Source: Candidatus Micrarchaeota archaeon (lineage in GTDB: Archaea; Micrarchaeota; Micrarchaeia; Anstonellales; Bilamarchaeaceae). From it: a stretch of DNA of 64,000 bases. The stretch is from contig WJIU01000045.1 of NCBI GenBank assembly GCA_014730115.1, positions 14,085 to 78,084 on the forward strand, in the 5' to 3' direction. The position numbers were made by a program, and so were the translations under genes. The notes below the pieces were generated by a model that did no database searches, had not been told where the DNA came from, and worked only from the letters and a program-made list of their open reading frames with translations. Below are positions 3,997 through 61,547 of the stretch, in pieces (within the stretch, counting starts at the first letter, position 1; each line of letters begins with the position of its first letter).

Positions 3997-4965
3997 ATGG
4001 GTTTAAGAGTTATCAGCCTAAGGCACAACGATATCTGCCAATTCAAAAACATCTCGCCCCAGCTCACCCGCAAAAGCCTGGAGAGATTCAAAAGGCTTAC
4101 TGAAAATGGATGTGTCCCGTTGCATCTGCACACCGAAAAGGGTGCCAGAAGCAGTCGCTCAGTATACGTTATTCCCGCATATGGAAGGCTTTCGGATTTG
4201 AGGCTTCCGGACAGCATCAGGGAAAAGGCTTCTGCAATCAGAAGCAGGGAAAACGCTAAAGCAGGTGGAAGATGGGTTGACAGCGACAAGCTGGCTGTGG
4301 ATTCCCTAGGTATACTGCCGGGGACAATTTCCGCCCTGGTAACAAAAATGAAGTTGTCGGAAACCCTTGCAATGAAACATTTTGGGATTGAAGACATCTG
4401 CAGGCTCAAGGCTTTCAGGCTGAACACCAATGCCCATGTTACTGCAAGAGACAATGGCAGGGAGGTGTTGCTTGTAGCCCAGAAAGAAACAACCCCTTCA
4501 GGCAAAAGGATGGGGGATAACGCTCTTCTGTCCGAAAAGACCCGGGGGGGCCTGGCATCAAACGGCATGTTTGATGCTGACGTGATTTCCAGTGAAAAAA
4601 GGGCCGGGGATGCCTGGGAAAGCTGCTGCAGAAAAGAATTTGAAGAGGAAACTGGCATAAGCCTGGAAACAACCAATCCGGATTACCTAGGACTGGTGAT
4701 GGACACCGTCCAGCCTGTGGGGGCGATAGGCATACTCGGGATTCTCAGAGCCGAACTGGAAACAAAGCAGATTGATGAAGCAAGGAAAAAGGCAAACGGC
4801 AGTGCAGGGATTGCAGCTTTGGACACCATACCAATGGAGGGTTCGGCAATGGCAAGATATCTCAGGGAAAACCGGGACTCTATGGTTCCGCAGCTGATTA
4901 CCGGCCTTGTGATTCTGGGCTATGAAAACTGGGGAGCAGAATTTCTCCGCCAGGCCGACAAGTAG
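3997..4965 (+). CDS. hypothetical protein with degenerate Nudix-like box
   Basis: KEFEEETGI resembles the REUxEExGU part of the Nudix box, but the upstream G-x5-E spacing is not met. A TATA-like ATTTATAAT lies about 25 nt upstream of ATG 3997. Confidence 0.5.
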   Translation: MGLRVISLRHNDICQFKNISPQLTRKSLERFKRLTENGCVPLHLHTEKGARSSRSVYVIPAYGRLSDLRLPDSIREKASAIRSRENAKAGGRWVDSDKLAVDSLGILPGTISALVTKMKLSETLAMKHFGIEDICRLKAFRLNTNAHVTARDNGREVLLVAQKETTPSGKRMGDNALLSEKTRGGLASNGMFDADVISSEKRAGDAWESCCRKEFEEETGISLETTNPDYLGLVMDTVQPVGAIGILGILRAELETKQIDEARKKANGSAGIAALDTIPMEGSAMARYLRENRDSMVPQLITGLVILGYENWGAEFLRQADK

Positions 4966-13616: not shown

Positions 13617-14657
13617 ATGAGTGGTATTGTTGGTTATGGCTCTTACGTCCCCCTTTACAGAATAAAAACTGAAGAGATTGCAAAGGTATGGGGAGAGGAT
13701 TCCCAAAGGATAGAAAAGGGCCTGGGCATAATTGAAAAGGCAGTGGGCGGAGTAGATGAAGATTCTGCCACCATTTCGGTGGAGGCTGCAAGAAATGCAC
13801 TTGCCAGGGCCGGTGTGGACCCCAAGAGGATAGGGGCTCTCTATGTTGGGAGCGAATCCCACCCTTATGCAGTGAAGCCCACCGGCACAATAGTTGCGGA
13901 GGCAATAAATGCCACTCCTGAGCTTACCTGTGCAGATTTGGAATTTGCGTGCAAGGCGGGAACCGCCGGGCTCCAGATTGTGCTTTCCATGGTTGACTCC
14001 GGAGATATCCAGTATGGCATGGCAATAGGGGCAGACACCGCCCAGGGAAGGCCCGGGGACCCCCTGGAGTATTCAGCAGCATCCGGAGGGGCAGCATTTC
14101 TCACCGGGCCGGAAGAGGAATCAGTGGCAGTGGTTGATGCCACCTGCTCGCATACCACAGATACCCCTGACTTCTGGAGAAGGCAGCACGCGGAATACCC
14201 CTCCCATGGCGGCAGGTTCACAGGAAAGCCGGCTTATTTCAATCATGTTCTAAGCTCCACCCAGATGCTAATGAAAAAGACTGGCACCAAAACAGAGGAC
14301 TACAGCCACATAGTATTCCACCAGCCCAACGGAAGGTTCCCCAGGGAAGCTGCAAAGAAACTGGGCGCGACAACGGAGCAGCTGGAAACCGGACTGCTCA
14401 CTCCAATCATAGGAAACACATACTCGGGCGCCTCCATGCTTGGCCTTTCCGCAGTTCTGGACAAGGCAAAGCCAGGAGAGAGAATCCTGGTTACTTCTTA
14501 CGGCTCGGGTGCGGGAAGCGATTCATTTGCACTTACCGTAACAGAAAAGATAGATGAGGTCAGAAACAAAGCGCCGCTTACCAGGGAATACATAGAAAAG
14601 AAGAAATACATAGACTATTCAACATACGTAAAATACAGAAAAAAGCTGAAAACCTAG
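13617..14657 (+). CDS. hydroxymethylglutaryl-CoA synthase (archaeal type)
   Basis: [11 protein letters not shown] (catalytic Cys region), FHQPNGRFP and GNTYSGAS. Starts [12 protein letters not shown]. Confidence 0.88.
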
Positions 14658-16174
14658 CCGCCCGGCATGTTTCTTATCTGATAGGTTTTTCCTTCCCCGA
14701 GGAAATCAAAAAAGTCCCTTGCCACCATTCCGAAATAGCGGAGGTTCACAGTATTGCTGTAATGCCGTGCAATGCCCCTAAGCTCGTCAGGGATCTCGCA
14801 TCTCTCGCTGTAGACGGTCATTGCCTCCTTTCTTTTTACCGCGAACACCCGGCCGTACATCTTCACCGCCTTTTTCCTGAGCATGTATACGAGGTCAGAC
14901 GATGTGGGCCTCCGCCCGTATCTTGAAATCAGTTCCTCAGGAACCTCAATGACCGTGGCTCCGCTGCAGAGGCTGTCTCCCCCCAGCACATAGCCTCCGT
15001 TCCTGAAATCACGCAGAAAGGGCAGGGTCTTGTGCTCGTCAGTTTCAAAATGAGTGAAAAGGTTGTACCGGTCATGAAGCTCCCGGGAAAGGGAATAATT
15101 TGACTGGTTGACCCAAAGCCTTTTGTTGCCGATATGCTTTTTGTTCAGATGGCGGAGAAACATCTTGAGCTCCCTGTTTTCAACCGGCACTTCTTTGGCC
15201 GTGGTGCAAAGGCTTGCATTCCACATTGCAACTGAATCAAAATTCCTGGCAATATCATGAGCCTCCCGGAGCTCCAGTGCTCCGGTCTCAACAGCAGTGT
15301 AGAGGCCCACCATCGGAATAGGCAGGGAGGGGGAATTGAAATTTACCGGATGGGCAATCCCCAGGGCAGCCAGGTTCGCTTCCCTGAACCTATACAGAAC
15401 GTCCAGAATTTCAAACATTGACATTCCAGAGAAATAGGCGGGCATTTCCAGTCTCCTTCCCCTGTCGATGATGGCTCTTTTTACCTGCCTGGCCACATTG
15501 CTGTTCCGCATCCATACCAGAAAATGTGGGCCGTTGGGCTCCCTTAGCGGGGCAGTAAACTCAATGCCCGGTACCGGGCTGAAACCAAGAAAGCGTCCTG
15601 CCCATGACATGAAACTGAATGCCTTTGCTGAAAAGCTGTTGTGGGATGTCAGGGAATGGAAATCAATTTGATAAAACAGCGCCTTCCTGATATTGTCGGT
15701 CAATGCGGAGACGCCATCATCATGGTCCACCATTCCCGGCCTGATTCTCTCCCCACTGGACGAAAAGTATGGCATGCTGAAACGGCCATAATGGGAATGG
15801 GAAACAAAATGAAATGAACTGGTCGGCTTTTTTCTGCTGTCTTCGGCAATCCGGTTTACTGCATCGGAAATTTCCTGGTCTGACGCATCCTTCCCCAGCC
15901 TTGCCTTGACCAGAAAATCCTTTCTTTTCAGCCAAAGCCCCTCCGGGTCGGGGTTGAAGTAATCAAGGGTAAGGGAGCCGTCTTTTTCCTTGACTGCAAA
16001 TATACAAAAATTGGAGCTCCGGCCATCAAGCCCCCTGTTAAAAATCAGTTCATATTCAGGCGAGAGCACCCTCCCCAGGGGCTTTTCCTGAATCACATCA
16101 TGCCTCGCCAAAGGAAAGCCTGCGCCACTCATCTTTTTTGCAAGCTTTTTCTGTACGCGGGTCAGCCCAGGCAT
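14654..16174 (-). CDS. hypothetical 506-aa protein, downstream partner of the Ser/Thr kinase
   Basis: Long uninterrupted ORF 38 nt downstream of the kinase on the same strand. His-rich patch [12 protein letters not shown] and MVDHDDG. No family recognised. Confidence 0.7.
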
Positions 16175-16212
16175 AGAATAATTGTGTTTAAAAGTGTTTA
16201 AAAATAAACGTT

Positions 16213-17166
16213 TTATGCAGTTTTAAGGGAGGCGGCCATCTCACCCATTGACTGGAACCGCTCCTCCGGCTTTCTTCCCAGAGCCTTCATGATTATTTCA
16301 TCTGCAATCCGGGGGATGTCCAGCTTCTGCTTTAGTTTACTGGGACTCAGAGGGCTGGTGTGCACCCTCATCTGAAGCTTTGCAATCTCATTGTGGGCAA
16401 CAAAAGGAAGCGTGCCGCAGACCATTTCATAAAGAATTACCCCTACCGAATAAATGTCCGCCCGGTGGTCGAAGGGCCTCCCGGAGGCTTCTTCCGGAGA
16501 GGCATAATTGATTGTTCCGAGGAAGTAGCCCCTGGTCAGTTTGCCCGGCTCTTCTTCTTCAAGAAACTTGAATTCTGATATGTCAAAGTCAATAAGCTTG
16601 ACTGTTCCACCGTTGGTCACAATTATATTCGCAGGCTTCACGTCCTTGTGGACTATCCCGTTTTTGTGAAGCTCCTCCAGCCCTGCACACACCTGGACAA
16701 TGGTTTCCTTTGCCTCTTCCCATTTACAGGGCAGGCATTCAGTGAAAAGGTCGCTGAGGTCGCGCCCCTCCAGGTAATCCATTACTATGTACACAACCCC
16801 GTCGGAGCGGCCGGAATCCCGGATATTGACAATATTTTCATGGTTTATCCCGGATAGGATATCGGCCTCATTCAGGATGCGCTCAATCTTTTTCCTGCCG
16901 CCCATGGAATTTTCAGTATACAGCTTTACTGCCACCTTCTCGTTTCTTTCTTTGTCCAGTGACCCGTAAACCACACCCATGCCGCCTTTTCCCCTTACCG
17001 GCCCAAGGGTGTACCTGTTGCAAAGCGTCTTTCCGGTGTAATCGCCCGGAAGACCATGGAATTTTCTAAAGTCTCTGGCTCTGTCCAGAAGGGTTGTCCT
17101 GGATGAAAATGGCTTTCCAAGGAATTCTGCAGTTGGCAGTTTTACGGTGGTAGTCTGTGACAACAT
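16213..17166 (-). CDS. Hanks-type Ser/Thr protein kinase
   Basis: G-loop GKGGMGVVY, VAVKL, catalytic loop HKDVKPANI, DFD (DFG-like) and SPEE (APE). Confidence 0.9.
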   Translation of the reverse strand: MLSQTTTVKLPTAEFLGKPFSSRTTLLDRARDFRKFHGLPGDYTGKTLCNRYTLGPVRGKGGMGVVYGSLDKERNEKVAVKLYTENSMGGRKKIERILNEADILSGINHENIVNIRDSGRSDGVVYIVMDYLEGRDLSDLFTECLPCKWEEAKETIVQVCAGLEELHKNGIVHKDVKPANIIVTNGGTVKLIDFDISEFKFLEEEEPGKLTRGYFLGTINYASPEEASGRPFDHRADIYSVGVILYEMVCGTLPFVAHNEIAKLQMRVHTSPLSPSKLKQKLDIPRIADEIIMKALGRKPEERFQSMGEMAASLKTA

Positions 17167-17238: not shown

Positions 17239-17253
17239 AAAACAAATAGAAAA
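17239..17253 (-). terminator. T-rich tract directly 3' of tRNA-Ile
   Basis: The minus strand reads TTTTCTATTTGTTTT immediately after the discriminator base. Archaeal terminators are oligo-T tracts. Confidence 0.5.
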
Positions 17254-17489
17254 TGGGCCTGCGGAGATAAATCCAGCCATGACGAGTTTACCTCGGAGCT
17301 TTCCCAAGGTCTGCCCCTGGAAGGACTGTCAAAAGGCTTTTGAACTCCGGACCTACGGCTTTCCTAGGCCAGCCAGTCCGTAAGGACTGTGCTAGAACGT
17401 GTCATATAAGACCGTCGCTCTAACCATTTCAGGCCCTGCCTGATAAAATCTTGAACAAATCAGTTCAAGGCTGACTGAGCTACAGGCCC
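17254..17489 (-). tRNA. tRNA-Ile(UAU) interrupted by three introns (D-loop, 37/38, T-loop)
   Basis: Hand-folded from the reverse complement. Acceptor GGGCCTG/CAGGCCC plus A73. D-stem GCTC/GAGC. Anticodon stem ACGGT/GCCGT with loop CTTATA|A. Variable AGGTC. T-stem CGGAG/CTCCG with loop TTCAAA|T. Inserted blocks are about 46 nt (17427-17472), 44 nt (17361-17404) and 71 nt (17268-17338). Mature length is 75 nt. Junctions are uncertain by 1-2 nt. Confidence 0.75.
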
Positions 17490-17507: not shown

Positions 17508-17523
17508 ATAAATGTTTTTTAAA
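17508..17523. promoter_or_regulatory. shared AT-rich TATA-like element between tRNA-Ile (minus) and folD (plus)
   Basis: ATAAATGTTTTTTAAA lies 19-34 nt from the tRNA 5' end and 24-39 nt from the folD ATG. Confidence 0.45.
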
Positions 17524-19198: not shown

Positions 19199-19309
19199 GG
19201 GCCCGTAGCTCAGCTTGGATAGAGCGACGCTCTCCTATTGCGTCCCGGAGGACAGGCTCCGGAAACAGCGGACAGGCGAAGGTCAAGGGTTCAAATCCCT
19301 TCGGGCCCG
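19199..19309 (+). tRNA. tRNA-Arg(CCU) with a 36-nt intron at the canonical 37/38 position
   Basis: Acceptor GGGCCCG/CGGGCCC plus G73. D-arm GCTC-AGCTTGGATA-GAGC. Anticodon stem ACGCT/GGCGA (one A-A mismatch, one G-U) with loop CTCCTA|A. AGGTC. T-arm AAGGG-TTCAAAT-CCCTT. Intron 19238-19273 contains the hairpin CCGGAG..CTCCGG. Confidence 0.78.
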
Positions 19310-23677: not shown

Positions 23678-24853
23678 TCAGGGCTGAACCCATTCGATTT
23701 CATAGTATTCATATTCGCTCCCGGGAAGTTCAATGGCCTTTATCACATAATAGGTGACGCTGCTCTCCCTGTCACTGATGCCTACAACCATTTCCAGTCC
23801 GAAGTGCTCGCATTCCGCGAGGGCTTTTGCCAGCTCCTCTCCGCCAATATATTCATCCTCGGTAAGGGAGTACATAAAATACCTGGGGGTTCCGTCTTTG
23901 GGAGTCTCTACCCCCCCCTTTTTCCGGTGATAGAGCAGAAAATCAAGGCGGGGGTTTTCAGAATCCACCTTTATCTTGGTTTTTTTGCCCGGGATTGCCA
24001 GGATAAATGTCTTTCTCACACTGTGGGCAACCCTTATGGCCCTTGCCCATTCTGAAATCAGCTGCTTGTGCTTGCGGGGAAACACATGGATTACGTGCTT
24101 GGAATGCATCCAGTCGGTGTTAGTACGCACCGGTGATGCTCCCGGGAAATAAAGCCGGAAATGGGTCCCGAATTTGAATCCGGTCTTCATCACATACCCC
24201 CTTTTTCTCCAGTCTTCATACACTGAATAGATGTCGTCAAAGAACTTTATCCTGCCCCTGGCAGTTTTCTGGATATCGGCAAGCTTTTTGTTGCGAAGTT
24301 GCAGACCGCCATGGCGCAGAAGAAAGATTGTCTCAAAGATGTCAAGCTTGGATATGTTTCCCCTGTGGGCAGCCTTGTAGGTTCCGAACTGGCCCATCCA
24401 GTATTTCTGATAAAGGTCCTTTCCGGTAGGGACATCATCGACAACTGTAAGCAGGTCATCCGCGAAAAACAGCCCGTCGAAAGAATAGGCATCCATCCTG
24501 AAATCAGAGCTTTCGTATTTGATTAGCACTGTTTTCCCATAATTGCCCTCCGCCTTTGCGGCGGCGCATATCATCAGGCCCTTGTCCCTCCAGTCCTTGT
24601 ACGTCAGATAGCGCGCAAGCAGCTTCTCGGCCTTCAGGAACAATGCTGCAATATCGTTGAAGGTATAGAGATTGCCCGCCTCATCGTAGCACCTGCCGTT
24701 CCTGATATCCATGATGTAAAGCGCTTCAACAGGTGAAAGATAGATTATCCCCTTTTTCATCTCTCCAAAAAATCCGTTTTGCAGGGACGAAACGTCTGGA
24801 GGCTCTTTTGCCGTTATCTGTCTGGTTTTCCGGTTCAGCTCAAGTTTTATCAT
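23678..24853 (-). CDS. endA: tRNA-splicing endonuclease, long single-chain multi-unit form
   Basis: 391 aa from MIKLELNRK. The catalytic unit reads YEDWRKRGYVMKTGFKFGTHFRLY .. HSKHVIHV .. SVRK (Tyr/His/Lys). A degenerate upstream unit reads YLTYKDWRDKGLMI. An extra C-terminal unit reads YFMYSL..FGLEMVVGISD. Confidence 0.85.
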   Translation of the reverse strand: MIKLELNRKTRQITAKEPPDVSSLQNGFFGEMKKGIIYLSPVEALYIMDIRNGRCYDEAGNLYTFNDIAALFLKAEKLLARYLTYKDWRDKGLMICAAAKAEGNYGKTVLIKYESSDFRMDAYSFDGLFFADDLLTVVDDVPTGKDLYQKYWMGQFGTYKAAHRGNISKLDIFETIFLLRHGGLQLRNKKLADIQKTARGRIKFFDDIYSVYEDWRKRGYVMKTGFKFGTHFRLYFPGASPVRTNTDWMHSKHVIHVFPRKHKQLISEWARAIRVAHSVRKTFILAIPGKKTKIKVDSENPRLDFLLYHRKKGGVETPKDGTPRYFMYSLTEDEYIGGEELAKALAECEHFGLEMVVGISDRESSVTYYVIKAIELPGSEYEYYEIEWVQP

Positions 24854-29080: not shown

Positions 29081-29199
29081 CGGGCCCGGGGGGATTTGAA
29101 CCCCCGACCCTCAGCTTAGAAGGCTGCTGCGCTATCCATTGCAGGAGCATCCGGCTGCCAACAGGTCAAGCCAAAAGGCTCAGGCTGCGCCACGGGCCC
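29081..29199 (-). tRNA. tRNA-Arg(UCU) with a 44-nt intron in the D-loop
   Basis: Acceptor GGGCCCG/CGGGCCC plus G73. D-stem GCGC/GCGC encloses 54 nt (AGCCTG|AGCCTTTTGG...CTGCAATG|GATA). Intact anticodon arm GCAGC-CTTCTAA-GCTGA. T-arm GGGGG-TTCAAAT-CCCCC. Intron is about 29137-29180. Confidence 0.8.
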
Positions 29200-37319: not shown

Positions 37320-38126
37320 ATGACTGCTCTTGACAAACTTATCAAAAGCGCAGAGGAAAGCAGGACCATCCTCTGCTTTGGGATAGACCCGGCAATAAAC
37401 CGCATGGCCCGGGAACCTGGGGAAGAGGAGCTTGAGGGGCTCATCACTGATTATTTCAGCAGCATTGTGGAGTCCCTCCTGGAGGAGAACGCAATCTCCG
37501 CAATCAAGCCCAATTACGCCTTCTTCGCGCAGTACGGTTTTGACGGCCTTCACGCGCTTGAGCACCTGATTGGGGACTGTAAAGAGGATGTGCCGGTAAT
37601 ACTGGACGTCAAAAGGGGGGATATCGGGAAGACCAGCGAGGCTTATGCAAAGGAGGCGTATGATTTCTGGGGTGCGGATGCGGCCACTATAAGCCCCTAT
37701 ATGGGAGAGGATTCAGTGAAGCCGTTTTTGAGGGAAGGCAAGCTTGCGTACCTTTTGTGCAGGACCTCCAACAAAGGGGCGAAGGACTTCCAAGAGTTGA
37801 AATGCGGGGATTCCATGCTTTACGAGAAGGTCCTGGAGAAGGCAATGGAATGGAACTGCGGCATTGTCGTGGGGGCGACCAGCGACGCAATCAGGAAAAT
37901 CGTGGAGCAAACCGGCAACAAAGTCCCGATGCTGATTCCCGGGATAGGTGCCCAGGGAGGCGATTTGGGCATGGTAATGGAAGCAATCGGGGAAAATGTT
38001 GCGATTCACAGGATTAATGCCTCGTCATCCATTGCCTATGCCCATGAAAAGCACGGTGGGAACCCGGTGGGGGCAGCATTGAAGGAAGCTGAAAACCTGA
38101 ACAAAAAAATAAGGGAGCATCTCTAG
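37320..38126 (+). CDS. pyrF: orotidine 5'-phosphate decarboxylase
   Basis: LDVKRGDIGKT and PGIGAQGG. Confidence 0.9.
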   Translation: MTALDKLIKSAEESRTILCFGIDPAINRMAREPGEEELEGLITDYFSSIVESLLEENAISAIKPNYAFFAQYGFDGLHALEHLIGDCKEDVPVILDVKRGDIGKTSEAYAKEAYDFWGADAATISPYMGEDSVKPFLREGKLAYLLCRTSNKGAKDFQELKCGDSMLYEKVLEKAMEWNCGIVVGATSDAIRKIVEQTGNKVPMLIPGIGAQGGDLGMVMEAIGENVAIHRINASSSIAYAHEKHGGNPVGAALKEAENLNKKIREHL

Positions 38127-39610
38127 GAAAAATTCAGCGCATCAAGAAATCCCTGGATTAACGGCCAGTTAACTGCCATGATGTACAAAGCCAGCAAAGC
38201 CAAAATAAGCCATAGAATCCTGACCGGCTTCTTCACCAGCCACCTGAAAAGCCGCCTCCCCGGCTTGAAAACCGCAAAAGTAAATATTTTTCCAAGTGCC
38301 TTCAGGATGAAATCCAGGAGCTTCAAGAGGAATCCGAAGATTCCGTCCCATACCGAAGGCCCTTTTTTCTTCTGCTTTTCCCTTTTGCCTGGCTCCGGGG
38401 AGGCTGCATCCTGTTTCTCTGCTTTTCGGGCCATTTTGCCGGCTTTCTTCCGGGCGTATTTTCCAGCAAGCCTCTGGTCGGTTGCCTCAAGCATCTCATT
38501 GTCAGAAACCACATCCATTGTTGTGGCCGGAGCAAACATGGTAACCTCTTCGGGCGCTGTCTGATTACCTTTGCCGTCCAGGGTGGACACTATTGCAACC
38601 CCTGTAGGCATAGCCTTCAGTTTTTCCATAACATCAAGGCCGGTTTTGGGAAACGAGCCGGCCAGAGCCTTGAGCCTCCGGTTTCCCTTCTGGGTGAATA
38701 CCTTCTGGGAGAAGATAATCTTGGTGGACAGCTGGCTGAGTATCTCCTCGGGAAGGTCGGTGACGTCCTGGGTTACAAAAAACACCGAAACCCCCTTGGA
38801 ACGTATCTGCTTCAGGATTGTCACCATCAGGTCACGGAGAGACTTGTTGGAGTCCTTGAATAGATAGTGGGCCTCATCAAAGAATATTGCGTATTCCGGC
38901 CGGTCTGCATCGCCCTTTTCCGGCAGCTCGTAAAAGAGCTTCTGGAGAAGGAATGCCGGCGCAATTGAGACAAGCATGTTTTTCCTTGCATCCGAAAGGT
39001 TCAGGACATTCAGGCCCCTGAGGCTTGAAAGCGAAACGTCCGGCTTTCCAAAAAGCGCGCCTGCCCCGGATTCCTGCAGGGCAAGAACCTTCCGCTCAAT
39101 CACAGACACGCTGGAGGGGTTCAGCCCCCTCTGTTTTTTTTCAAGCAACTCATCCAGCAGGTCCAGAAGGTCCTCCAGGCCATCCACCTGTCTTTTGTTT
39201 TTGCCTGCATATGAAAATGCCAGGGCAAGATTGCTTTCCTGGGTGGAATTCAGGGAAAGCAGCCGGGAAAGCAGGACCGGCCCGGCATCGGACAGCGAAA
39301 ACCTGAGTGGCACCAGCCGGTTTCCTATGCTCCAGTAGTTTGCCTTCAGCGGCCGGGGCTGATAGGGCGCAAGCCTGTTTCTTTCATTTTCCTTTCCGGC
39401 GGCGCAGAAACCGGATGCGTCCCCTTTTACATCGGAAACAAAAACATTGACTCCGGCATCGGAAAGCTGCTCGGCGAGCACCTGCATGGTCCTGCTTTTC
39501 CCGGTGCCGGTGCTGCCGGCAATAAGCCCGTGCCTGGAAAGATACCGGAAAGGAAGAAGTGAAACCCTGCCTGAACTATCAATGCCTATGGAAGGCCCGT
39601 TCATGCACAT
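38123..39610 (-). CDS. HerA-like/DUF853-type P-loop NTPase with basic and hydrophobic C-terminal tail
   Basis: Walker A GSTGTGKSRT and Walker B AIFFDEAHYLF. The C-terminus has RKKAGKMARKAEK..KREKQKKKG followed by hydrophobic segments (ILWLILALLALYIMAV). Confidence 0.8.
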   Translation of the reverse strand: MCMNGPSIGIDSSGRVSLLPFRYLSRHGLIAGSTGTGKSRTMQVLAEQLSDAGVNVFVSDVKGDASGFCAAGKENERNRLAPYQPRPLKANYWSIGNRLVPLRFSLSDAGPVLLSRLLSLNSTQESNLALAFSYAGKNKRQVDGLEDLLDLLDELLEKKQRGLNPSSVSVIERKVLALQESGAGALFGKPDVSLSSLRGLNVLNLSDARKNMLVSIAPAFLLQKLFYELPEKGDADRPEYAIFFDEAHYLFKDSNKSLRDLMVTILKQIRSKGVSVFFVTQDVTDLPEEILSQLSTKIIFSQKVFTQKGNRRLKALAGSFPKTGLDVMEKLKAMPTGVAIVSTLDGKGNQTAPEEVTMFAPATTMDVVSDNEMLEATDQRLAGKYARKKAGKMARKAEKQDAASPEPGKREKQKKKGPSVWDGIFGFLLKLLDFILKALGKIFTFAVFKPGRRLFRWLVKKPVRILWLILALLALYIMAVNWPLIQGFLDALNFS

Positions 39611-45975: not shown

Positions 45976-46962
45976 ATGAAAAGAAAACTTGAGATAACCC
46001 GAAAGCTGGAATTCATGGCAGTTTCCAGCCATCCGAAAAAACTGGGGAACCTTCTTGAAAACTCTGTTGCGATTTTGAACCTGCCCGCTTCCTTCCACTG
46101 TGACAAAGGCTGCCCGGGGTGTGTAATGCAGAAGGACGATGCGATACTGAAGGAAAGAGAGGGGGCGCTTCCCAGGTGGAAAATTTTCAGCCTTATTTCC
46201 GAATTCTCAGAAAAATTCGGCACAAAGTTTATCACGATAAACGGGAGAGGGGGGCCCCTTCATCCCATGGTGAAGGGGGAGACTCTGGAGAAAATACAAT
46301 ATGCAGAGGCAAGGGGCATTTCATCCTACCTCTTCACATCCGGGGATTACCTGGAGCCTGAGACGTGTGAGCTTCTTGCGGCTTTGGGAAGCAACGTCAT
46401 GATAAGCCTGCTTGGCAACGGATTCCTGGACAAAGACTTTTTCTCCGGCAGGGAATACCAGGGAACCCCAAAAACCATTGCAGGGAATGTCCGGATGCTG
46501 ATAAGCGCATTCCGGGATTCGCGGAACCAGCCGGAAGAAGGGCTGACCCGCCTGGGAATGAATTATGTGGTTTCCAGAAGGGACCTCAAAAAGCCGGCCA
46601 GGCTGAGGGAGCTGAAAAAGGCCGCCAACGACAACGGCATCTTTTTTGTGTGCAATGTTGATTTTGAGCCTGACCTTAATCCTTTCAGAAGGGCCAGGCT
46701 GCTGCGGCTTGCAAAGGAATGCAGCGACTTTAATCTCAGCCACAGCACCTCTGTAAAAGGCATCTGCCAGATGGGCGCAGGCTCTTCCCTGACAATCGCG
46801 CCTGACGGGAGCATCTACCACTGCCCCTACATGTATGAAGGCAGCGACGGCAATATAACAACTGTTTCTGAAGAGCAGCTCCTGAGGATTGCGGCCAGGT
46901 ACATAACCCAGGAGCAGTACGCCTGCATCAAAAGAAAAACAAAAGCACAGAAAAAGCGCTGA
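45976..46962 (+). CDS. radical SAM protein with SPASM-like C-terminal Cys cluster
   Basis: CDKGCPGC (CxxxCxxC). Later CNVD.., CQMGAGSSLTIAPDGSIYHCPYM. Confidence 0.78.
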   Translation: MKRKLEITRKLEFMAVSSHPKKLGNLLENSVAILNLPASFHCDKGCPGCVMQKDDAILKEREGALPRWKIFSLISEFSEKFGTKFITINGRGGPLHPMVKGETLEKIQYAEARGISSYLFTSGDYLEPETCELLAALGSNVMISLLGNGFLDKDFFSGREYQGTPKTIAGNVRMLISAFRDSRNQPEEGLTRLGMNYVVSRRDLKKPARLRELKKAANDNGIFFVCNVDFEPDLNPFRRARLLRLAKECSDFNLSHSTSVKGICQMGAGSSLTIAPDGSIYHCPYMYEGSDGNITTVSEEQLLRIAARYITQEQYACIKRKTKAQKKR

Positions 46963-49880: not shown

Positions 49881-51122
49881 ATGGACTATCAGGAAAAAAC
49901 AATATTGTTAGTAGTCCTGCTGCTATCGGCACTGGCTGTTTATTTTGTTTTTACAGCAGAAACGCCGGAAATCCCGGAGCAGGAAGAGGATGTTTCCGAA
50001 GCAGAAGCTCTGCTTCTGAAAGGCGTGTCCTTCGGCAAGGGGCATGACAACTATATCTATGCATACACCGAAACCGCAGACGGTTACGTAACAGAATATG
50101 GGCTTACCTCCAATGGCGACAGACAACTTGTAGAAGTCCGGAACCTGCTTTCAAACAAAAAGGCCTATTACCTGGAAAACGACACCGTGCTCTGCATTGA
50201 ATATCCTCCCGGAGAGGAAGTGTGCTCTTCAGTAAAGGGCAAATCCAGAGTAGAGAACTACATGAGGTCCCTGGAGGTCAAGCTGCTCAATGACACCCTC
50301 ATTGAAAACGGTGTGCGGAACACCCAGTACCTGCTTGACCAGGGATACATCAGGCTGAGCCCCAACATAACCAACCGCAGCAACTGCAGGGAAATCAGCT
50401 ACCAAATCGACTATACCGATGCATCGGTAGGAGATGCTGCAAGGTTCGGAATAGGCATCAACACACCAAAAATCTTCAATGTAACAATGTGCGTCAACAA
50501 CCGTAGCGGTTACATGCACGAAAGAAGTGTTACATATGAGCAGGAGGGCACAGTGCACTACAAGAATACCAGCCTGGTCTCCTTCAGCTCGATGAGCAGC
50601 GCAATCGAGGCTCCCCAGAACCTTAGCACCGGTGCAATAACCGCCCTGGAAAAAGAGCGGGAGCAGCAGGTCAGGCTGGTGGGCTGCTTCACCACAAAGG
50701 AAGGAGAGGAAAGGGACAAGTGCATCGCAACAATTGCTCTGGACCTTGAGAGAAAGGACCTTTGTGAATATGCCGGGGACCGCAGAGGCCGCTGCCTGGT
50801 TTCAATCGTCCCGCTAACCTTGGACGAGGGAATATGCCCCACAATCCAGGACCAGTCTTTCAGGGATGACTGCTATACCGAACTGGCCGGGGCATACCAG
50901 GACTCCAGCTACTGCGAGCAGGTGCAGGACCCTGAAAAGAAAGACTTCTGCACTGAGATCGCAGTACCGGAGGAAGAGGAAGAAGAACCGGACACAAACC
51001 AGAACGAATCAGGCAATGAGAGCGACATTCTGGATTTCATGGAGTATGTGGACCAGTACGGTGAAGAAGCCAACGAAACCGGCGGGGGCAATGAAACCAA
51101 CGCCACCAATACAACCCAATAA
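49881..51122 (+). CDS. membrane-anchored extracytoplasmic protein with periodic Cys repeats and acidic tail
   Basis: N-terminal TM ILLVVLLLSALAVYFVF. Seven Cys spaced about 12-15 aa apart (RDKCIATIAL, KDLCEYAG, RGRCLVS, EGICPTI, RDDCYTEL, SSYCEQV, KDFCTEI). Glu/Asn-rich end. Confidence 0.6.
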   Translation: MDYQEKTILLVVLLLSALAVYFVFTAETPEIPEQEEDVSEAEALLLKGVSFGKGHDNYIYAYTETADGYVTEYGLTSNGDRQLVEVRNLLSNKKAYYLENDTVLCIEYPPGEEVCSSVKGKSRVENYMRSLEVKLLNDTLIENGVRNTQYLLDQGYIRLSPNITNRSNCREISYQIDYTDASVGDAARFGIGINTPKIFNVTMCVNNRSGYMHERSVTYEQEGTVHYKNTSLVSFSSMSSAIEAPQNLSTGAITALEKEREQQVRLVGCFTTKEGEERDKCIATIALDLERKDLCEYAGDRRGRCLVSIVPLTLDEGICPTIQDQSFRDDCYTELAGAYQDSSYCEQVQDPEKKDFCTEIAVPEEEEEEPDTNQNESGNESDILDFMEYVDQYGEEANETGGGNETNATNTTQ

Positions 51123-53990: not shown

Positions 53991-56576
53991 CTACATGCTC
54001 TTGAATTCCTTTATCATATCCTCAAGCTCATCAGCAGTGTAGAGCAGCAGGGACTTGCTTTCGGCCTCCATCTTGAGTATGAGGGGTGCTACGGTCGGAG
54101 ACGAATCAACCAATTCCCTGAATTTCTCTTTCTCTCCAATGTCCTTAAACACGATTATCGTTATTCCTTTCCCAATGGTATTGAGAACGCCCTCAAGCAG
54201 CTCCTTGACACGCTTCTCCCCTTCAAAGAAGTGCAGGAACATCTGCTGGCCCACCACGGTGATTACACTGTCTGCTTTTTTGGATTCTCCAAGGCCGGTG
54301 AACGGGACCGCATTATTCACGCATATGTCCCTGAGCTTTCTCATAATGGCAAGATAATCGATGGAATGCTTGGTTTTCTCCTCCCATTCGGCAAGCCCAT
54401 AGTATTCCATTGCCTCGCTAACCAGTTCCTTTTTCTCGAGCTGCTCCAGCAGGAACTCCACATTGTAATCAGTTATGAAGATGGGCCTTCCCTTGTAGAA
54501 CACCCCCTTGAAGGCACTTTTTATTTCGGAAGTGGTCAGCGGCGTGAATTCCCAGTGGTAATTTTCATTCACCTTTGAGAAAAGGCTGAGAACCACATCC
54601 TGGGAGAGAGGTATCTTGGTTCTGGCCACCGGCGGGAAGTCTGGTATGTCAAGGGAGTAGAATATTTCCTCCTGCCTTGCAAAGTAGACGCCAAAGCCTA
54701 CGATTACTGCTGTGAGAATTACGGTAACCCAGAACAGCGGGTCGGTGAAAATGCTGGGCGGGCTTTCATGCTTCACGGTAACAGTTTCCCTGAGGCCGGA
54801 AGAAACAAACTCAAACGTATGCACACCATCCGGCAGCCTCTGGTTGGTGCTGCCAGTGTAGCGCTCAAGGTCTACCCTTATTGTTGAGACATCATTGAAT
54901 TCATATGTTCCGTACCTTCCATCGTCTATTTCCAGGGAAATGGTATCAATGGTAACCGGCTGGTTGTCCATGGCAATACTGAAGACATAGGTGGAGCGCC
55001 TCCTGCTGTCCAGTCCGCGGTAGCTTACATCTATGGAGACTACATTCAGATAGGTCTGGGCATAAACCCTGCTCTGGTCGTCAATCAGCTGCATTATGTA
55101 TTCGCCTTCTTTCCCGAATATGCCAACGTCAAACGAGCGGTCGGCCTGGACGTTTACGTTTCCCTGTGGATAGGTCTCCACCTGAGAGCCGTTCTCATCC
55201 ACAAGCAACAGGAACATATTGGGCTGACCGGGCTCAGGCTCCTTCATCTCCGCGTTCAGCCTGACCGGATTGTTGGTGAGGTTTGTGGGGATTACATTTA
55301 CGCCTTCCTGGATATAGAGGTTGCTATTGGTTTCCTTTTCAAGATAGATGTAAAGGGTTTCCCTTACCGGATATTTGGATGCTGAAGATTCGCCGATGAA
55401 ATCCACCCTTACCGAAGTCCTTTTTGGCTCGAAACCCTCTGTAAAGAAATATCTTTCACCAACATAGCTGCTCTGGTTGACAAACTGGTAGGTGGTATTG
55501 GACGCAAGGGAGTTGGCCCAGGGAATCTCAAACACTATCCTTGAAATATCATTTGCAGCAAGTTCGTAATCATTTCTCCATCCGCCGTCCAGTGTCTGGG
55601 GCACAAAGACAAATGCTCCGTTGTTTCTCCGGACCACGCTGACCGAGCCGTAGGCAATCCGGCTAACCCAGGTTCCCTTGGAGCCGGCCCGGTAAAGCGG
55701 CTGGAAAAGGCTGAAATTCTGCTCGGACTGCAGAGGGGTGGTCTCATCAAATGTCACCGGCAGCTCGTTCAGCTTTTCCTTGGGGGTCGAGACCGCCAGG
55801 GTTCCATTGAGCATCTGGGTAAACGGCTGTCCGATATATATGACCACCACCCCGCGGTTGGCAAGCTTGTTCATTGAGATTCTACTGTCATAGCCAAGAA
55901 GCTCTTTGGGCACAACCCCGCTGGGCACAATCACAATCGCTCCTTCCGGAATAGTTTCAAGCTGCTTGATGCTTATCTCGTTGAGCATCACATTTCTTGA
56001 GCCCAGTCGGTGCCTGAGCTCCCTCATGAAATCAGGATATATGGATGCCTCTATTTTTTCAGAATTGAGCACAAAAACCTCGGATGGTATTTTCTGCTCA
56101 TACGGAGTGAGTATGATAGTGTAGTTGTCAAGGTTGCTGGTGTTGTACTCGACAAAAACAGCAGCACGATGATTCAGCGAGCCCCTTTGCCCCGAATTCA
56201 AGACCTCGCCCGAAACTATGGTGTTCATGAGCTCAGGCTTGTCCGCGGCCGGCTTGAACTCCTCAGGCGGAGGCGCCAGCTGGACAGTCAGGTATATCCA
56301 GGCAATTCCCAGGACAATAAGCGCAATAAGCAAAGCTGCCCCTAAAACTGCAAAGTTGAATCCTCCCGGCGGCTTGGAGGGCGCAGCCAGCGGGGCTTCT
56401 TTTTTCTTTGCCTTTTTTTCCTTTTCCTTGGATGCAAAAAGCTTGTTGAGCTCGTCCCTGATCTGCTCTAAAGGAGACCGCTCAATAACCCGGTAGTGGT
56501 TTTCATACTGATAGCGGCGCTTAATGTCGAACCTGTAGAGCTTCTTCTGGATTTTCACCTTGTCGATGTCCACCAT
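53991..56576 (-). CDS. 861-aa bitopic membrane protein (operon gene 5)
   Basis: TM at about aa 70-95 (FNFAVLGAALLIALIVLGIAWIYL). An extracytoplasmic region of about 520 aa is rich in N-x-S/T. Second TM (LFWVTVILTAVIVGFGVYFA), then a cytoplasmic domain of about 225 aa. Lies 1 nt after gene 4. Confidence 0.7.
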   Translation of the reverse strand: MVDIDKVKIQKKLYRFDIKRRYQYENHYRVIERSPLEQIRDELNKLFASKEKEKKAKKKEAPLAAPSKPPGGFNFAVLGAALLIALIVLGIAWIYLTVQLAPPPEEFKPAADKPELMNTIVSGEVLNSGQRGSLNHRAAVFVEYNTSNLDNYTIILTPYEQKIPSEVFVLNSEKIEASIYPDFMRELRHRLGSRNVMLNEISIKQLETIPEGAIVIVPSGVVPKELLGYDSRISMNKLANRGVVVIYIGQPFTQMLNGTLAVSTPKEKLNELPVTFDETTPLQSEQNFSLFQPLYRAGSKGTWVSRIAYGSVSVVRRNNGAFVFVPQTLDGGWRNDYELAANDISRIVFEIPWANSLASNTTYQFVNQSSYVGERYFFTEGFEPKRTSVRVDFIGESSASKYPVRETLYIYLEKETNSNLYIQEGVNVIPTNLTNNPVRLNAEMKEPEPGQPNMFLLLVDENGSQVETYPQGNVNVQADRSFDVGIFGKEGEYIMQLIDDQSRVYAQTYLNVVSIDVSYRGLDSRRRSTYVFSIAMDNQPVTIDTISLEIDDGRYGTYEFNDVSTIRVDLERYTGSTNQRLPDGVHTFEFVSSGLRETVTVKHESPPSIFTDPLFWVTVILTAVIVGFGVYFARQEEIFYSLDIPDFPPVARTKIPLSQDVVLSLFSKVNENYHWEFTPLTTSEIKSAFKGVFYKGRPIFITDYNVEFLLEQLEKKELVSEAMEYYGLAEWEEKTKHSIDYLAIMRKLRDICVNNAVPFTGLGESKKADSVITVVGQQMFLHFFEGEKRVKELLEGVLNTIGKGITIIVFKDIGEKEKFRELVDSSPTVAPLILKMEAESKSLLLYTADELEDMIKEFKSM

Positions 56577-57881: not shown

Positions 57882-59474
57882 CTATTCCTCAAGCACAACC
57901 TGGCTTATCTCTCTTCCGACTCCGCCGCTCTTTTTCAGGTCCACTTTTCCGAAGATGTTGATGATGGTAATGTCATCAAGCCCGGAGTCCTTGAGAAAGT
58001 CGCTGATGTTCCTGCGTGCAACCCCGTCACGCTCCAGGGTAATCACAAAGGACACCACATCGAGCCGCCGGTTGTTCTTTTCGAACATCTTGGTGATTTC
58101 CTCCACCTTGTCATCTCCCAAACCAAACTGCCTGAGTCTTCTTCTTACATCTTCCTTCAGGAATGAAACGCTTCTTGCCACTGAAATGTCCCTCCTTTGT
58201 GTTTCGGTAAGCACCTCCTTGAGTTCAAGGAAGTACTCCTTGCTGGGCTCCTCCCCCTCGATTTTCTGAAGAAGGAATGTCGAGGGATATGGAGTGGGGG
58301 TGGTCATTGAAAGGTTCACTGCCGCCTGGCCCACGCCAAGGCGGGATATCTCCTCCCTCATATAGTTGCTGAAATTCAGCGAGCCCTGGAGATAGTCCAG
58401 GAACCTTTCGAATTTGACTTTTAGAATAAACGTTGTTCCCACGTTGCTGAAGATTGCTTCGCTGATGTCGGTGGGGTTCTGGGATGCGATAATCATGCCG
58501 AAGTTGTATTTTCTTCCTTCACGCACAATCATCACTGCGTCAGAGTTGTTGTCCTTCCCTATCTTCCACGCTTCGTCGAGAACCACGATAAGCCTGAGGC
58601 CTCTTTTCCTTGCCCCTTCAATGGAGCCGGCAAGCCTCATTCTTTCTTTGATGAACTGAAGCATTGTAAGTGCGGCAAGGGCACGGGATGTCTCGTCAGG
58701 AAGGCCCACCAGGTCCAGGTCTACAAGCCCGGAAGTAACTATATCATCCAGGCTTACCGTGCTCTGCTGGGCAAAGAAGTCCTCGCCTGACTTGGTGAAC
58801 TGCTTTAACCTGTAAATTGCGTTTTCCAGCTCTGCAGGGAATTCATAGCTTCCCATCTGGGCTTCCTCGGTAAGTATGCGGACCACGTCCTTGAGCGTGG
58901 GCGGGGTAAGGGGCTTTCCAAGCTCGTCCTTCTGCTCCCGGGAGTCCATCCTGAACTTGTTTTCCAGGTATGTCTTTTCTATTGCCTGCTCGGTGAGCCT
59001 CCTCTGCTCCGGATAGTTGCCTATATCTGTGAGCAGCTCAAGGGTCCTCATGACCTGCTTGATACGGTCATAAGGCCTCATCCCCCCCAAATCCAGCAGG
59101 TTGAGGTATGAGCCGCGGCCGAGTGAAACAACCTTTCCCCCGGTCATCTTCACCCAGTTCTTGTACTCTCCTGCCCAGTCCAAAATAAGAGCATTGGAAT
59201 CCCACACAAACGAAGCCCTCAACAGGAAGGTCTTGATGAAATAAGACTTGCCTGAACCTGAAATCCCGCACACTGCAATGTGGGGGTTGGCGAGGCTTTC
59301 GTGCGTCCAGTAGAACGGAACATCGAAAATCTTGGTCCTTCCGATATAAACAGAATCCCTGGGGTCGGCAAACAGGACTTTCATGGGCGGCTCCGGCGGA
59401 TGCACCAGAATATTGCGCTTGGAAATGTCCTTGTTTGGGACCTTGGTTAGTACGAGCTTTCCTCCTAGCACCAT
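57882..59474 (-). CDS. VirB4/HerA/FtsK-superfamily P-loop ATPase (operon gene 2)
   Basis: Walker A IAVCGISGSGKSY, Walker B LIVVLDEAWK, and FGMIIASQNP. Start ATG 59474 lies 2 nt after the gene 1 stop. A C-terminal extension of about 110 aa is present. Confidence 0.85.
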   Translation of the reverse strand: MVLGGKLVLTKVPNKDISKRNILVHPPEPPMKVLFADPRDSVYIGRTKIFDVPFYWTHESLANPHIAVCGISGSGKSYFIKTFLLRASFVWDSNALILDWAGEYKNWVKMTGGKVVSLGRGSYLNLLDLGGMRPYDRIKQVMRTLELLTDIGNYPEQRRLTEQAIEKTYLENKFRMDSREQKDELGKPLTPPTLKDVVRILTEEAQMGSYEFPAELENAIYRLKQFTKSGEDFFAQQSTVSLDDIVTSGLVDLDLVGLPDETSRALAALTMLQFIKERMRLAGSIEGARKRGLRLIVVLDEAWKIGKDNNSDAVMIVREGRKYNFGMIIASQNPTDISEAIFSNVGTTFILKVKFERFLDYLQGSLNFSNYMREEISRLGVGQAAVNLSMTTPTPYPSTFLLQKIEGEEPSKEYFLELKEVLTETQRRDISVARSVSFLKEDVRRRLRQFGLGDDKVEEITKMFEKNNRRLDVVSFVITLERDGVARRNISDFLKDSGLDDITIINIFGKVDLKKSGGVGREISQVVLEE

Positions 59475-60464: not shown

Positions 60465-61547
60465 ATGAAAATGCAGAAACTGAATGATTCACTCCTGAGA
60501 GGAGTAGAGGCAGGAAACAAGGAGGCCACCGCCATTGTTTCTGCGGTGGTGGAGACCAATGCGCTTACCCAGCAGGAGATTATCAGGGCATGGGAAAGTG
60601 CAGTACAGGGTGTTCTGAAGGGCAGCAAAGGAGCAGCAAAACTGGGCTTCGGGCTTGCAGACAAAAGCCAGGATGCCGAAGCAGGCCAGATTTACGAGGA
60701 CCTTGTTCTCCTGGCATTCAAGCCTACCCACAAGCTTTCTTTCAGCAAGACTATCAGCACCGGCGCTGCGGTGGTAAGGGTGCAGAATGGAAACATCAGC
60801 TGCAGGGGATTTGACCCTGATAAATTCCTGGAGCTGGCAAAGAAATGCCTGATTAATGCCGCAAAAAAGGGAAATGACTATTCCAAGCGCTTTGCTGTGG
60901 AGGCCCTGAGGAATTTCAATAACCGTGAAGGAATCAAGGAGGAGCTGCTTGCAATAGCCCAGGGCAGGAATGATGAAAAACTCATGGGGGCCGTTTTTGA
61001 AAGCCTGATGCATCTCAGGGTGGACGAAGAGCTGGAGGTCGCCCAGAGGGACAGGAAACTTATCCTGGATAATTACGACGAGACCTCGCCGGGCAGACTG
61101 TATGCGGAGATGCTTTTTGACAGCATTGAAACAGTTCTCAGAGACACAGGCAGAAAAGAAAGGGAACAGGACGTCACTGTTGCTACCATGCAGCTTGCAC
61201 GCTCCAACATCAAGTCAGAGGCACCAGGGGAGATGCTCGACGAGGTAAGCATCAAGCTTGCCCAGAAGAACATCGAAAATGCGCTGATTCATGCGATGGT
61301 CAACGGGGAAGGAAGAAGCAGGGAAGAGGCCTGCGAAGGGCTGGCATCTATAGGTGGTGAGAGAGTCAGCTTTATTCTGGACAGGATATCAAAGAGAGAG
61401 ATAAAAGACGGTACACCCACCAGAGCAGGGGATGCTGCAAGAACTACCCTGCTCAGGATTCACAAAAAGGAGAAACCGACGCTCCCCCCGCCTATTCCGC
61501 CGGCAGCAGTAAGGAAGGAAAAGGCAAGGAAACTGGCCAGACGGTAG
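60465..61547 (+). CDS. alpha-helical (HEAT/ARM-like) repeat protein with basic Pro-rich tail
   Basis: 360 aa, all-helical, with repeated ..A.EALRNF.. / ..ACEGLASIGG.. type helices. Tail KKEKPTLPPPIPPAAVRKEKARKLARR. Confidence 0.5.
   Translation: MKMQKLNDSLLRGVEAGNKEATAIVSAVVETNALTQQEIIRAWESAVQGVLKGSKGAAKLGFGLADKSQDAEAGQIYEDLVLLAFKPTHKLSFSKTISTGAAVVRVQNGNISCRGFDPDKFLELAKKCLINAAKKGNDYSKRFAVEALRNFNNREGIKEELLAIAQGRNDEKLMGAVFESLMHLRVDEELEVAQRDRKLILDNYDETSPGRLYAEMLFDSIETVLRDTGRKEREQDVTVATMQLARSNIKSEAPGEMLDEVSIKLAQKNIENALIHAMVNGEGRSREEACEGLASIGGERVSFILDRISKREIKDGTPTRAGDAARTTLLRIHKKEKPTLPPPIPPAAVRKEKARKLARR

Follow-up and report, generated by a model that had tools for sequence, protein, structure and literature searches.

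The 64-kb stretch of archaeal DNA analysed here, which we refer to as the window, carries at positions 17254-17489 a tRNA-Ile gene with a UAU anticodon that is divided into four exons. The gene lies on the minus strand, the only strand on which this interval can be read as a tRNA, and runs from G1 (17489) to the discriminator base A73 (17254). An initial annotation had placed it at exactly these coordinates, leaving the strand unstated, and had proposed introns of about 46, 44 and 71 nt in the D-loop, at 37/38 and in the T-loop; these prove to be exact, as borne out by the splice motifs, orthologues, covariation and cognate endonuclease described below. In the numbering of the 236-nt precursor the exons comprise nucleotides 1-17, 64-85, 130-150 and 222-236, and the introns nucleotides 18-63, 86-129 and 151-221.

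Exon 1 (17 nt; 17473..17489, minus strand, as for all parts of the gene) provides the 5' strand of the acceptor stem, U8-A9, the 5' strand of the D-stem and D-loop nucleotides A14-C17, and is the same as the corresponding exon at L051, a locus in a Micrarchaeota metagenome-assembled genome (MAG). It is followed by intron 1 (46 nt; 17427..17472), which sits in the D-loop between C17 and U17a. Exon 2 (22 nt; 17405..17426) then supplies U17a G18 G19 U20 U20a A21, the 3' strand of the D-stem, G26, the 5' strand of the anticodon stem and C32 U33 U34 A35 U36 A37, and ends at intron 2 (44 nt; 17361..17404), which occupies the canonical 37/38 site. Exon 3 (21 nt; 17340..17360) runs from A38 through the 3' strand of the anticodon stem, the variable loop AGGUC and the 5' strand of the T-stem to U54 U55 C56 A57 A58, where intron 3 (71 nt; 17269..17339) divides the T-loop at 58/59; exon 4 (15 nt; 17254..17268) completes the molecule with A59 U60, the 3' strands of the T-stem and acceptor stem, and A73.

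Upstream, a TATA-like box (TTTAAAAAA; 17515..17523, minus strand), centred about 30 nt from G1, lies within a conserved GGTTTTAAAAAC-GTTTATCGG element that also precedes the orthologous genes at L011, L043, L068, L047, L020 and L121, and we infer that it serves as the promoter. Directly 3' of A73 is a T-rich tract (TTTTCTATTTGTTTT; 17239..17253, minus strand), which is likely to act as the transcription stop. CCA is not encoded in the gene.

Splice motifs and the mature tRNA

Joining the four exons generates a 75-mer, GGGCCTGTAGCTCAGTCTGGTTAGAGCGACGGTCTTATAAGCCGTAGGTCCGGAGTTCAAATCTCCGCAGGCCCA, which ARAGORN calls as tRNA-Ile(tat) with a canonical cloverleaf, in agreement with the product, anticodon loop (CTTATAA in the DNA), UAU anticodon and A73 that had been predicted at the outset. 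In the spliced molecule the acceptor stem is 7 bp long, the D stem is formed by GCUC/GAGC, the D-loop reads AGUCUGGUUA and contains G18G19, the variable loop reads AGGUC and the T-loop UUCAAAU; the anticodon loop (CUUAUAA) contains the seven nucleotides C32 U33 U34 A35 U36 A37 A38 when the splice sites are set by motif, thus with U33 and a purine at position 37. Its cloverleaf fold has an energy of -30.6 kcal/mol, as compared with -31.9 for the minimum free energy (MFE) structure.

We scanned the precursor for bulge-helix-bulge (BHB) motifs, defined by a central helix (H) of 4 bp with a 3-nt bulge at either end, on opposite strands, and outer helices h and h' beyond, each cut being assumed to fall between bulge nucleotides 2 and 3; this geometry matches the dU14/A15 scissile site in the enzyme-RNA structure of the endonuclease from ARMAN-2 (PMC12397907) and, applied to dozens of orthologues, recovers splicing at 37/38 as well. 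A motif, as the reading in the initial annotation requires, can be drawn at each of the three junctions, with a perfect 4-bp H in the register that places the cuts where the cloverleaf requires them. At the D-loop junction H is formed by UCAG/CUGA, with bulges UCA and AAU, an h of 1 bp and an h' of 6 bp, making a relaxed HBh' motif. At 37/38 H is CUUA/UAGG, the bulges are UAU and AAA, and h is the 5-bp anticodon stem, with a weak h' (G:C, A.C, C:G), giving an hBH-type motif, whilst the 58/59 junction has a strict hBHBh' motif with H of GUUC/GGAU, bulges AAA and UUA, an h of 3 bp and an h' of 4 bp. An H of 4 bp together with at least 3 bp in either h or h' occurs in 0.25% of junction pairs in shuffled sequence, which puts the probability that three pre-specified junctions would all qualify by chance at about 1.6e-8.

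It is conceivable that the locus encodes a real tRNA in which one of these junctions is placed differently, so that, for instance, the tRNA would be 73 nt long and its D-loop 8 nt (AGUGGUUA), or the anticodon loop would be shifted. A legal D-loop also results if TCAGCC...CTGAAA (48 nt) is excised, the 236 nt offer many alternative BHB-like pairings (69 of 18,836 junction pairs), and a shift of one A at either the 37/38 or the 58/59 junction leaves the product unchanged, such that it is the motif that sets the exact sites. Against this, the motif-defined cuts reproduce precisely the D-loop and T-loop as they stand, uninterrupted, in L051, the alternative near the anticodon (5' exon end at 84, 3' exon start at 131) has an h' of 0 and leaves a 5-nt loop, and the geometry of H4 and h5 at 37/38 is typical of most of the 54 orthologues that have this intron. 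We therefore regard a different junction as very improbable, and retain the four-exon structure given above.

In its unspliced form the gene escapes the standard tRNA finders, as had been foreseen. ARAGORN makes no call, either with or without its intron options (at several intron settings), and returns wrong isotypes when a single intron is retained; the Rfam tRNA model finds no match at the locus, neither at its gathering score nor at E<=5. What we take to be the organism's main decoder of the isoleucine codon AUA, and with it the tRNA-Arg(UCU) gene of the window (see below), is thus missed or mis-called by both programs, so that the tRNA complements of Micrarchaeota MAGs may be under-counted wherever such finders are used.

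Orthologues, synteny and intron turnover

An exact-pattern scan for GAGCGACGGTCTTATA, with one genome taken per species, recovered at least 119 loci, mostly labelled Micrarchaeota and with some from other DPANN archaea. When the spliced 75-mer was aligned to them, with long gaps allowed at no cost, 63 orthologues aligned well over the full length; loci from Aenigmatarchaeota are too divergent for an alignment-based parse of introns and were excluded from the counts. Lower-scoring matches to GAGCGACGGTCTTATA in bacterial genomes and at L007 (Archaeoglobaceae) were set aside as chance 16-mers. Good matches to the anticodon arm were also seen in MAGs labelled outside DPANN, several of them with introns (L030 and L062, Marsarchaeota; L052, Methanobacteriota; L066, L076, L099 and L115, labelled Methanosarcinales; L053, Sigynarchaeum); either these bins are mislabelled or contaminated, or the distribution of tRNA-Ile(UAU) among archaea is wider than the literature consulted reports.

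Among the matches listed, nine of the 63 genes are uninterrupted and 75 nt long, 23 have a single intron, 19 have two, 11 have three and one has four. The sites used include 6/7, 15/16, 37/38, 45/46, 53/54, 56/57, 58/59 and 59/60. An intron homologous to intron 2 is present at 37/38 in 54 of the 63 (again among the matches listed), and an intron at 58/59 with matching motif geometry is found at L011, L043, L048, L068, L069, L083 and L121. The survey thereby constitutes a small natural experiment in intron gain and loss, with intron numbers for a single tRNA ranging from 0 to 4 and at least eight sites in use.

In one of these orthologues, L051, the exons are 100% identical to the spliced 75-mer and the 37/38 intron is the only one present; measured against this gene, which is contiguous in both loops, the D-loop and T-loop blocks of the window gene are clean insertions. 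A scan of metagenomes for the D-loop junction gave three contigs, L121, L122 and L123. L121 and L123 share the three-intron arrangement of the window gene, site for site, with D-loop and 37/38 introns that are near-identical to those of the window and a 58/59 intron that differs in sequence, and the exons of L121 are identical to those of the window gene. The homologous D-loop intron is 43 nt long in L121 and L123 and 39 nt in L122, and one pair in its h' helix is U:G in the window and U:A in all three contigs.

L122 itself (Ga0180433_10000004, oriented coordinates 1615-1860) appears to have four introns, at 17/17a, 37/38, 53/54 and 59/60, and its spliced product is called as tRNA-Ile(tat); likewise, L020 (JACRGB010000017.1, oriented coordinates 4226-4487) has an apparent four, at 15/16, 37/38, 53/54 and 59/60, the 53/54 motif being weak (H3 only). 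The outer helix of the 59/60 motif forms only once the 53/54 intron has been removed. The paper describing tRNAscan-SE 2.0 gives up to three introns for archaeal tRNA genes (PMC8450103), and L122 and L020 thus appear to stand one above that stated maximum; our literature search found no four-intron archaeal tRNA.

Covariation was assessed in a set of 30 distinct spliced orthologue sequences, in which 99.2% of cloverleaf cells are paired and both partners are altered in seven pairs, of which four belong to the acceptor stem and three to the T stem. Neither the observed pairing nor the observed covariation score was attained in any of 500 shuffles (0/500), and controls with slid partners were 21-47% paired.

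Gene order places the locus in the same lineage. FolD, encoded beside the tRNA gene, has the same sequence as NCBI MBD3210904.1 (100% identity) and is 76% identical to a protein on JAHJCT010000017.1, a contig from a Candidatus Micrarchaeota MAG that shares the local order of HMG-CoA synthase, gap, FolD, an Asn-synthase-like gene, and argininosuccinate synthase and lyase. The gap on that contig holds an orthologous tRNA-Ile(UAU) gene with the homologous 37/38 intron, a T-arm intron at 53/54 in place of 58/59, and no D-loop intron. Taken with the match of the tRNA exons to Micrarchaeota MAGs, and with a splicing endonuclease that is 51% identical to that of ARMAN-2, this synteny identifies the source of the window, as judged from sequence, as a relative of the ARMAN archaea. 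In the Micrarchaeota relative (L001, 3577-5000) the tRNA lies directly between an HMG-CoA-synthase-like gene and FolD; in the window that interval holds two additional minus-strand genes (14654-17166), encoding a 506-residue protein with no Pfam match and a 317-residue Ser/Thr protein kinase.

These comparisons bear on whether the locus might instead be a decaying pseudogene, in which three insertions have disabled a former tRNA-Ile gene and a working copy lies elsewhere. Such a view would fit with the blindness of the standard finders, and with the fact that two of the three motifs are relaxed, not strict. It is hard to reconcile with an absence of exon substitutions relative to L051, with a correctly phased BHB motif at all three insertions, and with retention of the architecture in L121 and L123 and of the D-loop intron in L122, where the change in h' preserves pairing. 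The promoter and terminator, as we read them, are also retained, the syntenic position is conserved and a broad-specificity endonuclease is present, and we consider decay to be very unlikely.

A further possibility is that the introns are not neutral, and that the 37/38 intron, and perhaps the others, directs modification of the anticodon, orders the folding of the precursor or blocks integrating elements. In its favour, the 5' half of the 37/38 intron (window 17385-17404) is conserved about as well as the exons in some 25 orthologues, with an 80% consensus of UG.C.CG.UCU...ACA across Micrarchaeota whose acceptor and T stems differ; a segment of this half, CGUUCUAA, is complementary to UUAGAGCG in the D-arm, with which it pairs in the unconstrained MFE fold; and in yeast tRNA-Ile(UAU), pseudouridines 34 and 36 are made only on the intron-containing precursor (PMC4090602). 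But nine Micrarchaeota orthologues dispense with introns altogether, in contrast to the requirement for the intron in yeast, the variable third position (U/A/C) of the complementary segment does not keep pairing consistently, and no Rfam family, those of C/D-box RNAs included, matches the region. A C/D-box guide within the 37/38 intron was rejected, since a C box is absent and the D-box-like CUGA motif is found in only some orthologues. On balance a function for the introns seems doubtful. We nonetheless allow ourselves one speculation, to which we give a slightly smaller chance still: that the conserved 37/38 intron, possibly along with ordered removal of the D-loop and T-loop introns, might hold the precursor for modification of U34 and/or U36. 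Were this so, the UAU anticodon would be safe against misreading of AUG, and archaea would offer a parallel to the intron-dependent pseudouridylation of tRNA-Ile(UAU) in eukaryotes.

The splicing endonuclease, AUA decoding and related systems

Just 6 kb from the tRNA-Ile(UAU) gene, the window encodes a tRNA splicing endonuclease of the three-unit epsilon2 type (391 residues; 23678..24853, minus strand), recognised from Pfam and from alignment to PDB 4FZ2_A. Its one strong Pfam match to the catalytic domain (PF01974, tRNA-intron-endonuclease catalytic domain; E 6.6e-27) is internal, at residues 205-294, as described for the ARMAN-1 and ARMAN-2 enzymes, with a weak match to PF02778 near the N-terminus. 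Residues 3-391 align to residues 4-387 of 4FZ2_A (E 9e-133, 51% identity), the three-unit epsilon2 EndA of ARMAN-2, Candidatus Micrarchaeum acidiphilum (PMC3488258), so that a single polypeptide is colinear with that enzyme across its alphaN, alpha and betaC units. The catalytic triad is kept (Y235/H250/K281, equivalent to Y236/H251/K282 in ARMAN-2), as is the Tyr-Lys pair of the ARMAN-specific loop (GTYKAAHR as against GTYKVSEH), in which Y159-K160 corresponds to ARMAN-2 Y160-K161. The key residues have been defined previously (PMC3488258; PMC12397907), and K161 confers cleavage of relaxed motifs on the ARMAN-2 enzyme, which in vitro acts on strict and relaxed motifs alike, cutting a strict one in the pre-tRNA-Ile(UAU) of ARMAN-2 and a relaxed one, of hBH type, located in a T-loop (PMC3239211; PMC3488258). 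Given these conserved residues and the cutting of strict and relaxed motifs by the ARMAN-2 enzyme, the means of removing all three introns would be encoded close by, and the 391-residue protein is the enzyme expected to cut them; formation of a homodimer and cleavage of relaxed motifs, both demonstrated for the ARMAN-2 enzyme only, are predicted for this protein.

Drawing on the anatomy of the gene, its motifs, orthology and covariation, on the presence of the enzyme with its key residues, and on the usage of AUA described below, all of which are direct observations, we propose that in this archaeon, a member of the Micrarchaeota (DPANN), the locus functions as a tRNA-Ile(UAU) gene that is read as a single transcript and interrupted by three BHB-type introns, a proposal to which we assign a probability of roughly 0.88. 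Transcription from the upstream TATA-type promoter would produce the 236-nt precursor with a short leader, ending at the T-run. The epsilon2-type endonuclease would then cut between bulge nucleotides 2 and 3 at the D-loop HBh', 37/38 hBH and 58/59 hBHBh' motifs, following which a ligase of the RtcB type, presumably encoded outside the window, would join the four exons. Trimming of the ends and addition of CCA would yield the 75-nt product, which, with its UAU anticodon and A73, would be charged with isoleucine and read AUA. Charging by IleRS is a prediction; A73 is present, and the anticodon is of the isoleucine type.

Several points weigh against this proposal. The h' helix at 37/38 and the h helix in the D-loop are weak, with 1 contiguous bp each, and both sites depend on tolerance of relaxed motifs by the enzyme. 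Neither the D stem nor the anticodon stem varies among the orthologues, in part because the search pattern fixed both, and support from covariation therefore comes from the acceptor and T stems alone. Transcription and splicing of the gene are read from its sequence, and the view of the genome is one of 64 kb, such that a second intact copy, a tRNA-Ile(CAU) gene or a gene for TiaS may lie elsewhere.

This last point touches on how the organism decodes AUA. Across the long open reading frames (ORFs) of the window (17,980 codons), isoleucine is encoded by 400 ATA, 386 ATT and 347 ATC codons out of 1133; AUA is thus the commonest isoleucine codon, at 35% and 22 per 1000 codons, and at this level of usage a reader for it is needed. 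None of the 49 window ORFs scanned with Pfam encodes TiaS, IleRS or RtcB, and no tRNA-Ile2(CAU) was found within the 64 kb by ARAGORN, by Rfam or by a scan for acceptor stems and T-arms, although their absence from 64 kb says little about the whole genome. The gene could accordingly be functional in an organism that is not independent of TiaS, with tRNA-Ile2(CAU) and TiaS encoded elsewhere and the UAU tRNA acting as a redundant or minor reader of AUA; inspection covered just the window, where their absence is uninformative. This seems to us unlikely. The published genomes of ARMAN-2, -4 and -5 encode tRNA-Ile(UAU) but neither TiaS nor tRNA-Ile(CAU) (Fujishima et al. 2011, PMC3239211), the UAU gene is conserved in dozens of Micrarchaeota species, and AUA leads the isoleucine codons of the window. 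Decoding of AUA independently of TiaS, which the initial annotation had suggested as a possibility, is the published view for this lineage, and by analogy with the ARMAN genomes TiaS and tRNA-Ile(CAU) are probably absent from this genome also; a literature search on TiaS and DPANN returned nothing relevant. The picture of AUA decoding in DPANN archaea, already described in 2011, is unchanged by our findings.

The initial annotation had described an encoded UAU anticodon as rare and reported for Nanoarchaeum and Korarchaeum. That description holds for both genera, in which a UAU-anticodon tRNA-Ile likewise replaces the CAU form (tRNAscan-SE 2.0 paper, PMC8450103), but the list was incomplete, since ARMAN-2, -4 and -5 had been reported in 2011 (PMC3239211), and with ARMAN left out the gene came across as a greater surprise than is warranted. 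Nanoarchaeum equitans and Korarchaeum cryptofilum belong to other lineages, and are comparable here by anticodon alone (PMC8450103).

By every feature tested the gene belongs to the class of archaeal BHB-intron tRNA genes, and its nearest known counterpart is the ARMAN-2 pre-tRNA-Ile(UAU) with its epsilon2 EndA (PMC3239211; Hirata et al. 2012, PMC3488258; Miyata et al. 2025, PMC12397907), with which it shares lineage at the level of phylum. The two have in common a tRNA-Ile with a UAU anticodon and 37/38 intron, a proposed TiaS-independent decoding of AUA, and an endonuclease of similar length (391 as against 387-395 residues) that aligns over its full length at 51% identity and keeps the Y/H/K triad and specificity-loop Lys. 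They differ in that the ARMAN-2 gene has a single 25-nt intron with a strict motif, whereas the window gene has a 44-nt intron of hBH type at 37/38 together with introns in the D-loop and T-loop. Parallels to the latter are the ARMAN-2 tRNA-Pro(GGG) gene, with two T-loop introns (53/54 and 59/60), and the tRNA-Cys(GCA) gene, with an hBH intron at 59/60 (PMC3239211), which have multiple or non-canonical introns and relaxed T-loop motifs; these are, however, other tRNAs with at most two introns, and an intron in the D-loop is not described there.

Further afield, in Thermoproteales such as Pyrobaculum calidifontis, as cited in PMC8450103 and PMC4090602, individual tRNA genes may contain as many as three BHB introns, whether at the canonical position or elsewhere, with relaxed hBH/HBh' motifs and rapid gain and loss among relatives. 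So far as these accounts extend, Thermoproteales are of another phylum, cut their introns with an (alpha-beta)2 heterotetrameric endonuclease that has a Crenarchaea-specific loop and is not of the epsilon2 type, and use TiaS together with tRNA-Ile2(CAU). The eukaryotic tRNA-Ile(UAU) also combines a UAU anticodon with a 37/38 intron (PMC4090602), and decoding in ARMAN has been likened to the eukaryotic strategy (PMC3239211).

The kind of gene is therefore already known, a Micrarchaeota tRNA-Ile(UAU) having served as an endonuclease substrate in 2011, from which the present example differs in its three introns and D-loop site; genes with three introns are themselves well known in Thermoproteales, and account for 11 of the 63 orthologues. 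What it adds is a well-documented case of the accumulation of introns at many tRNA positions in lineages with an epsilon2 endonuclease, with one enzyme gene and three interrupted tRNA genes lying within a single 64-kb window.

Other tRNA genes and features of the window

Four tRNA genes are present in the window, three of them interrupted. The tRNA-Arg(CCU) gene (19199-19309, plus strand; Rfam tRNA score 51 bits) has a 36-nt intron at 37/38 (19238-19273), and takes its identity from the motif-guided splice, ARAGORN's own placement of the intron leading to a call of Phe. In the tRNA-Arg(UCU) gene (119 nt; 29081-29199, minus strand) the D-loop is interrupted after position 17 by an intron of 44 nt (29182-29139), which corresponds in site and in HBh' geometry (H4, h1, h'4) to intron 1 of tRNA-Ile(UAU). 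The gene scores 26.9 bits with Rfam, below the gathering score, and is called tRNA-??? or tRNA-Ser by ARAGORN; once spliced it is a 75-nt tRNA-Arg(tct). Recent transposition between the two D-loop introns is unsupported, their shared sequence extending little beyond AGCCTT. The fourth gene, tRNA-Ser(GCU), is uninterrupted. A crude scan of the window for further hidden tRNAs, based on acceptor stems and T-arms, recovered the four known genes only; a 405-nt candidate that it raised at 1405-1809 reads like coding sequence and was discarded.

Introns at 15/16, 53/54 and 58/59 in L043, L047, L078, L102 and L011, together with intron 3 of the window gene (17269-17339), share a C/U-rich start inside h', CYUUUUGR...AAAAG, which hints at common descent of these introns or at their movement between sites. 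Within the window gene, the 9-mer ACAGTCCTT is common to introns 2 and 3.

Among the protein-coding genes of the window, four large ORFs have no Pfam match at E<=1e-5 (53991-56576, 861 residues; 49881-51122, 413 residues; 60465-61547, 360 residues; 45976-46962, 328 residues), and two others encode HerA-like ATPases (38123-39610 and 57882-59474).

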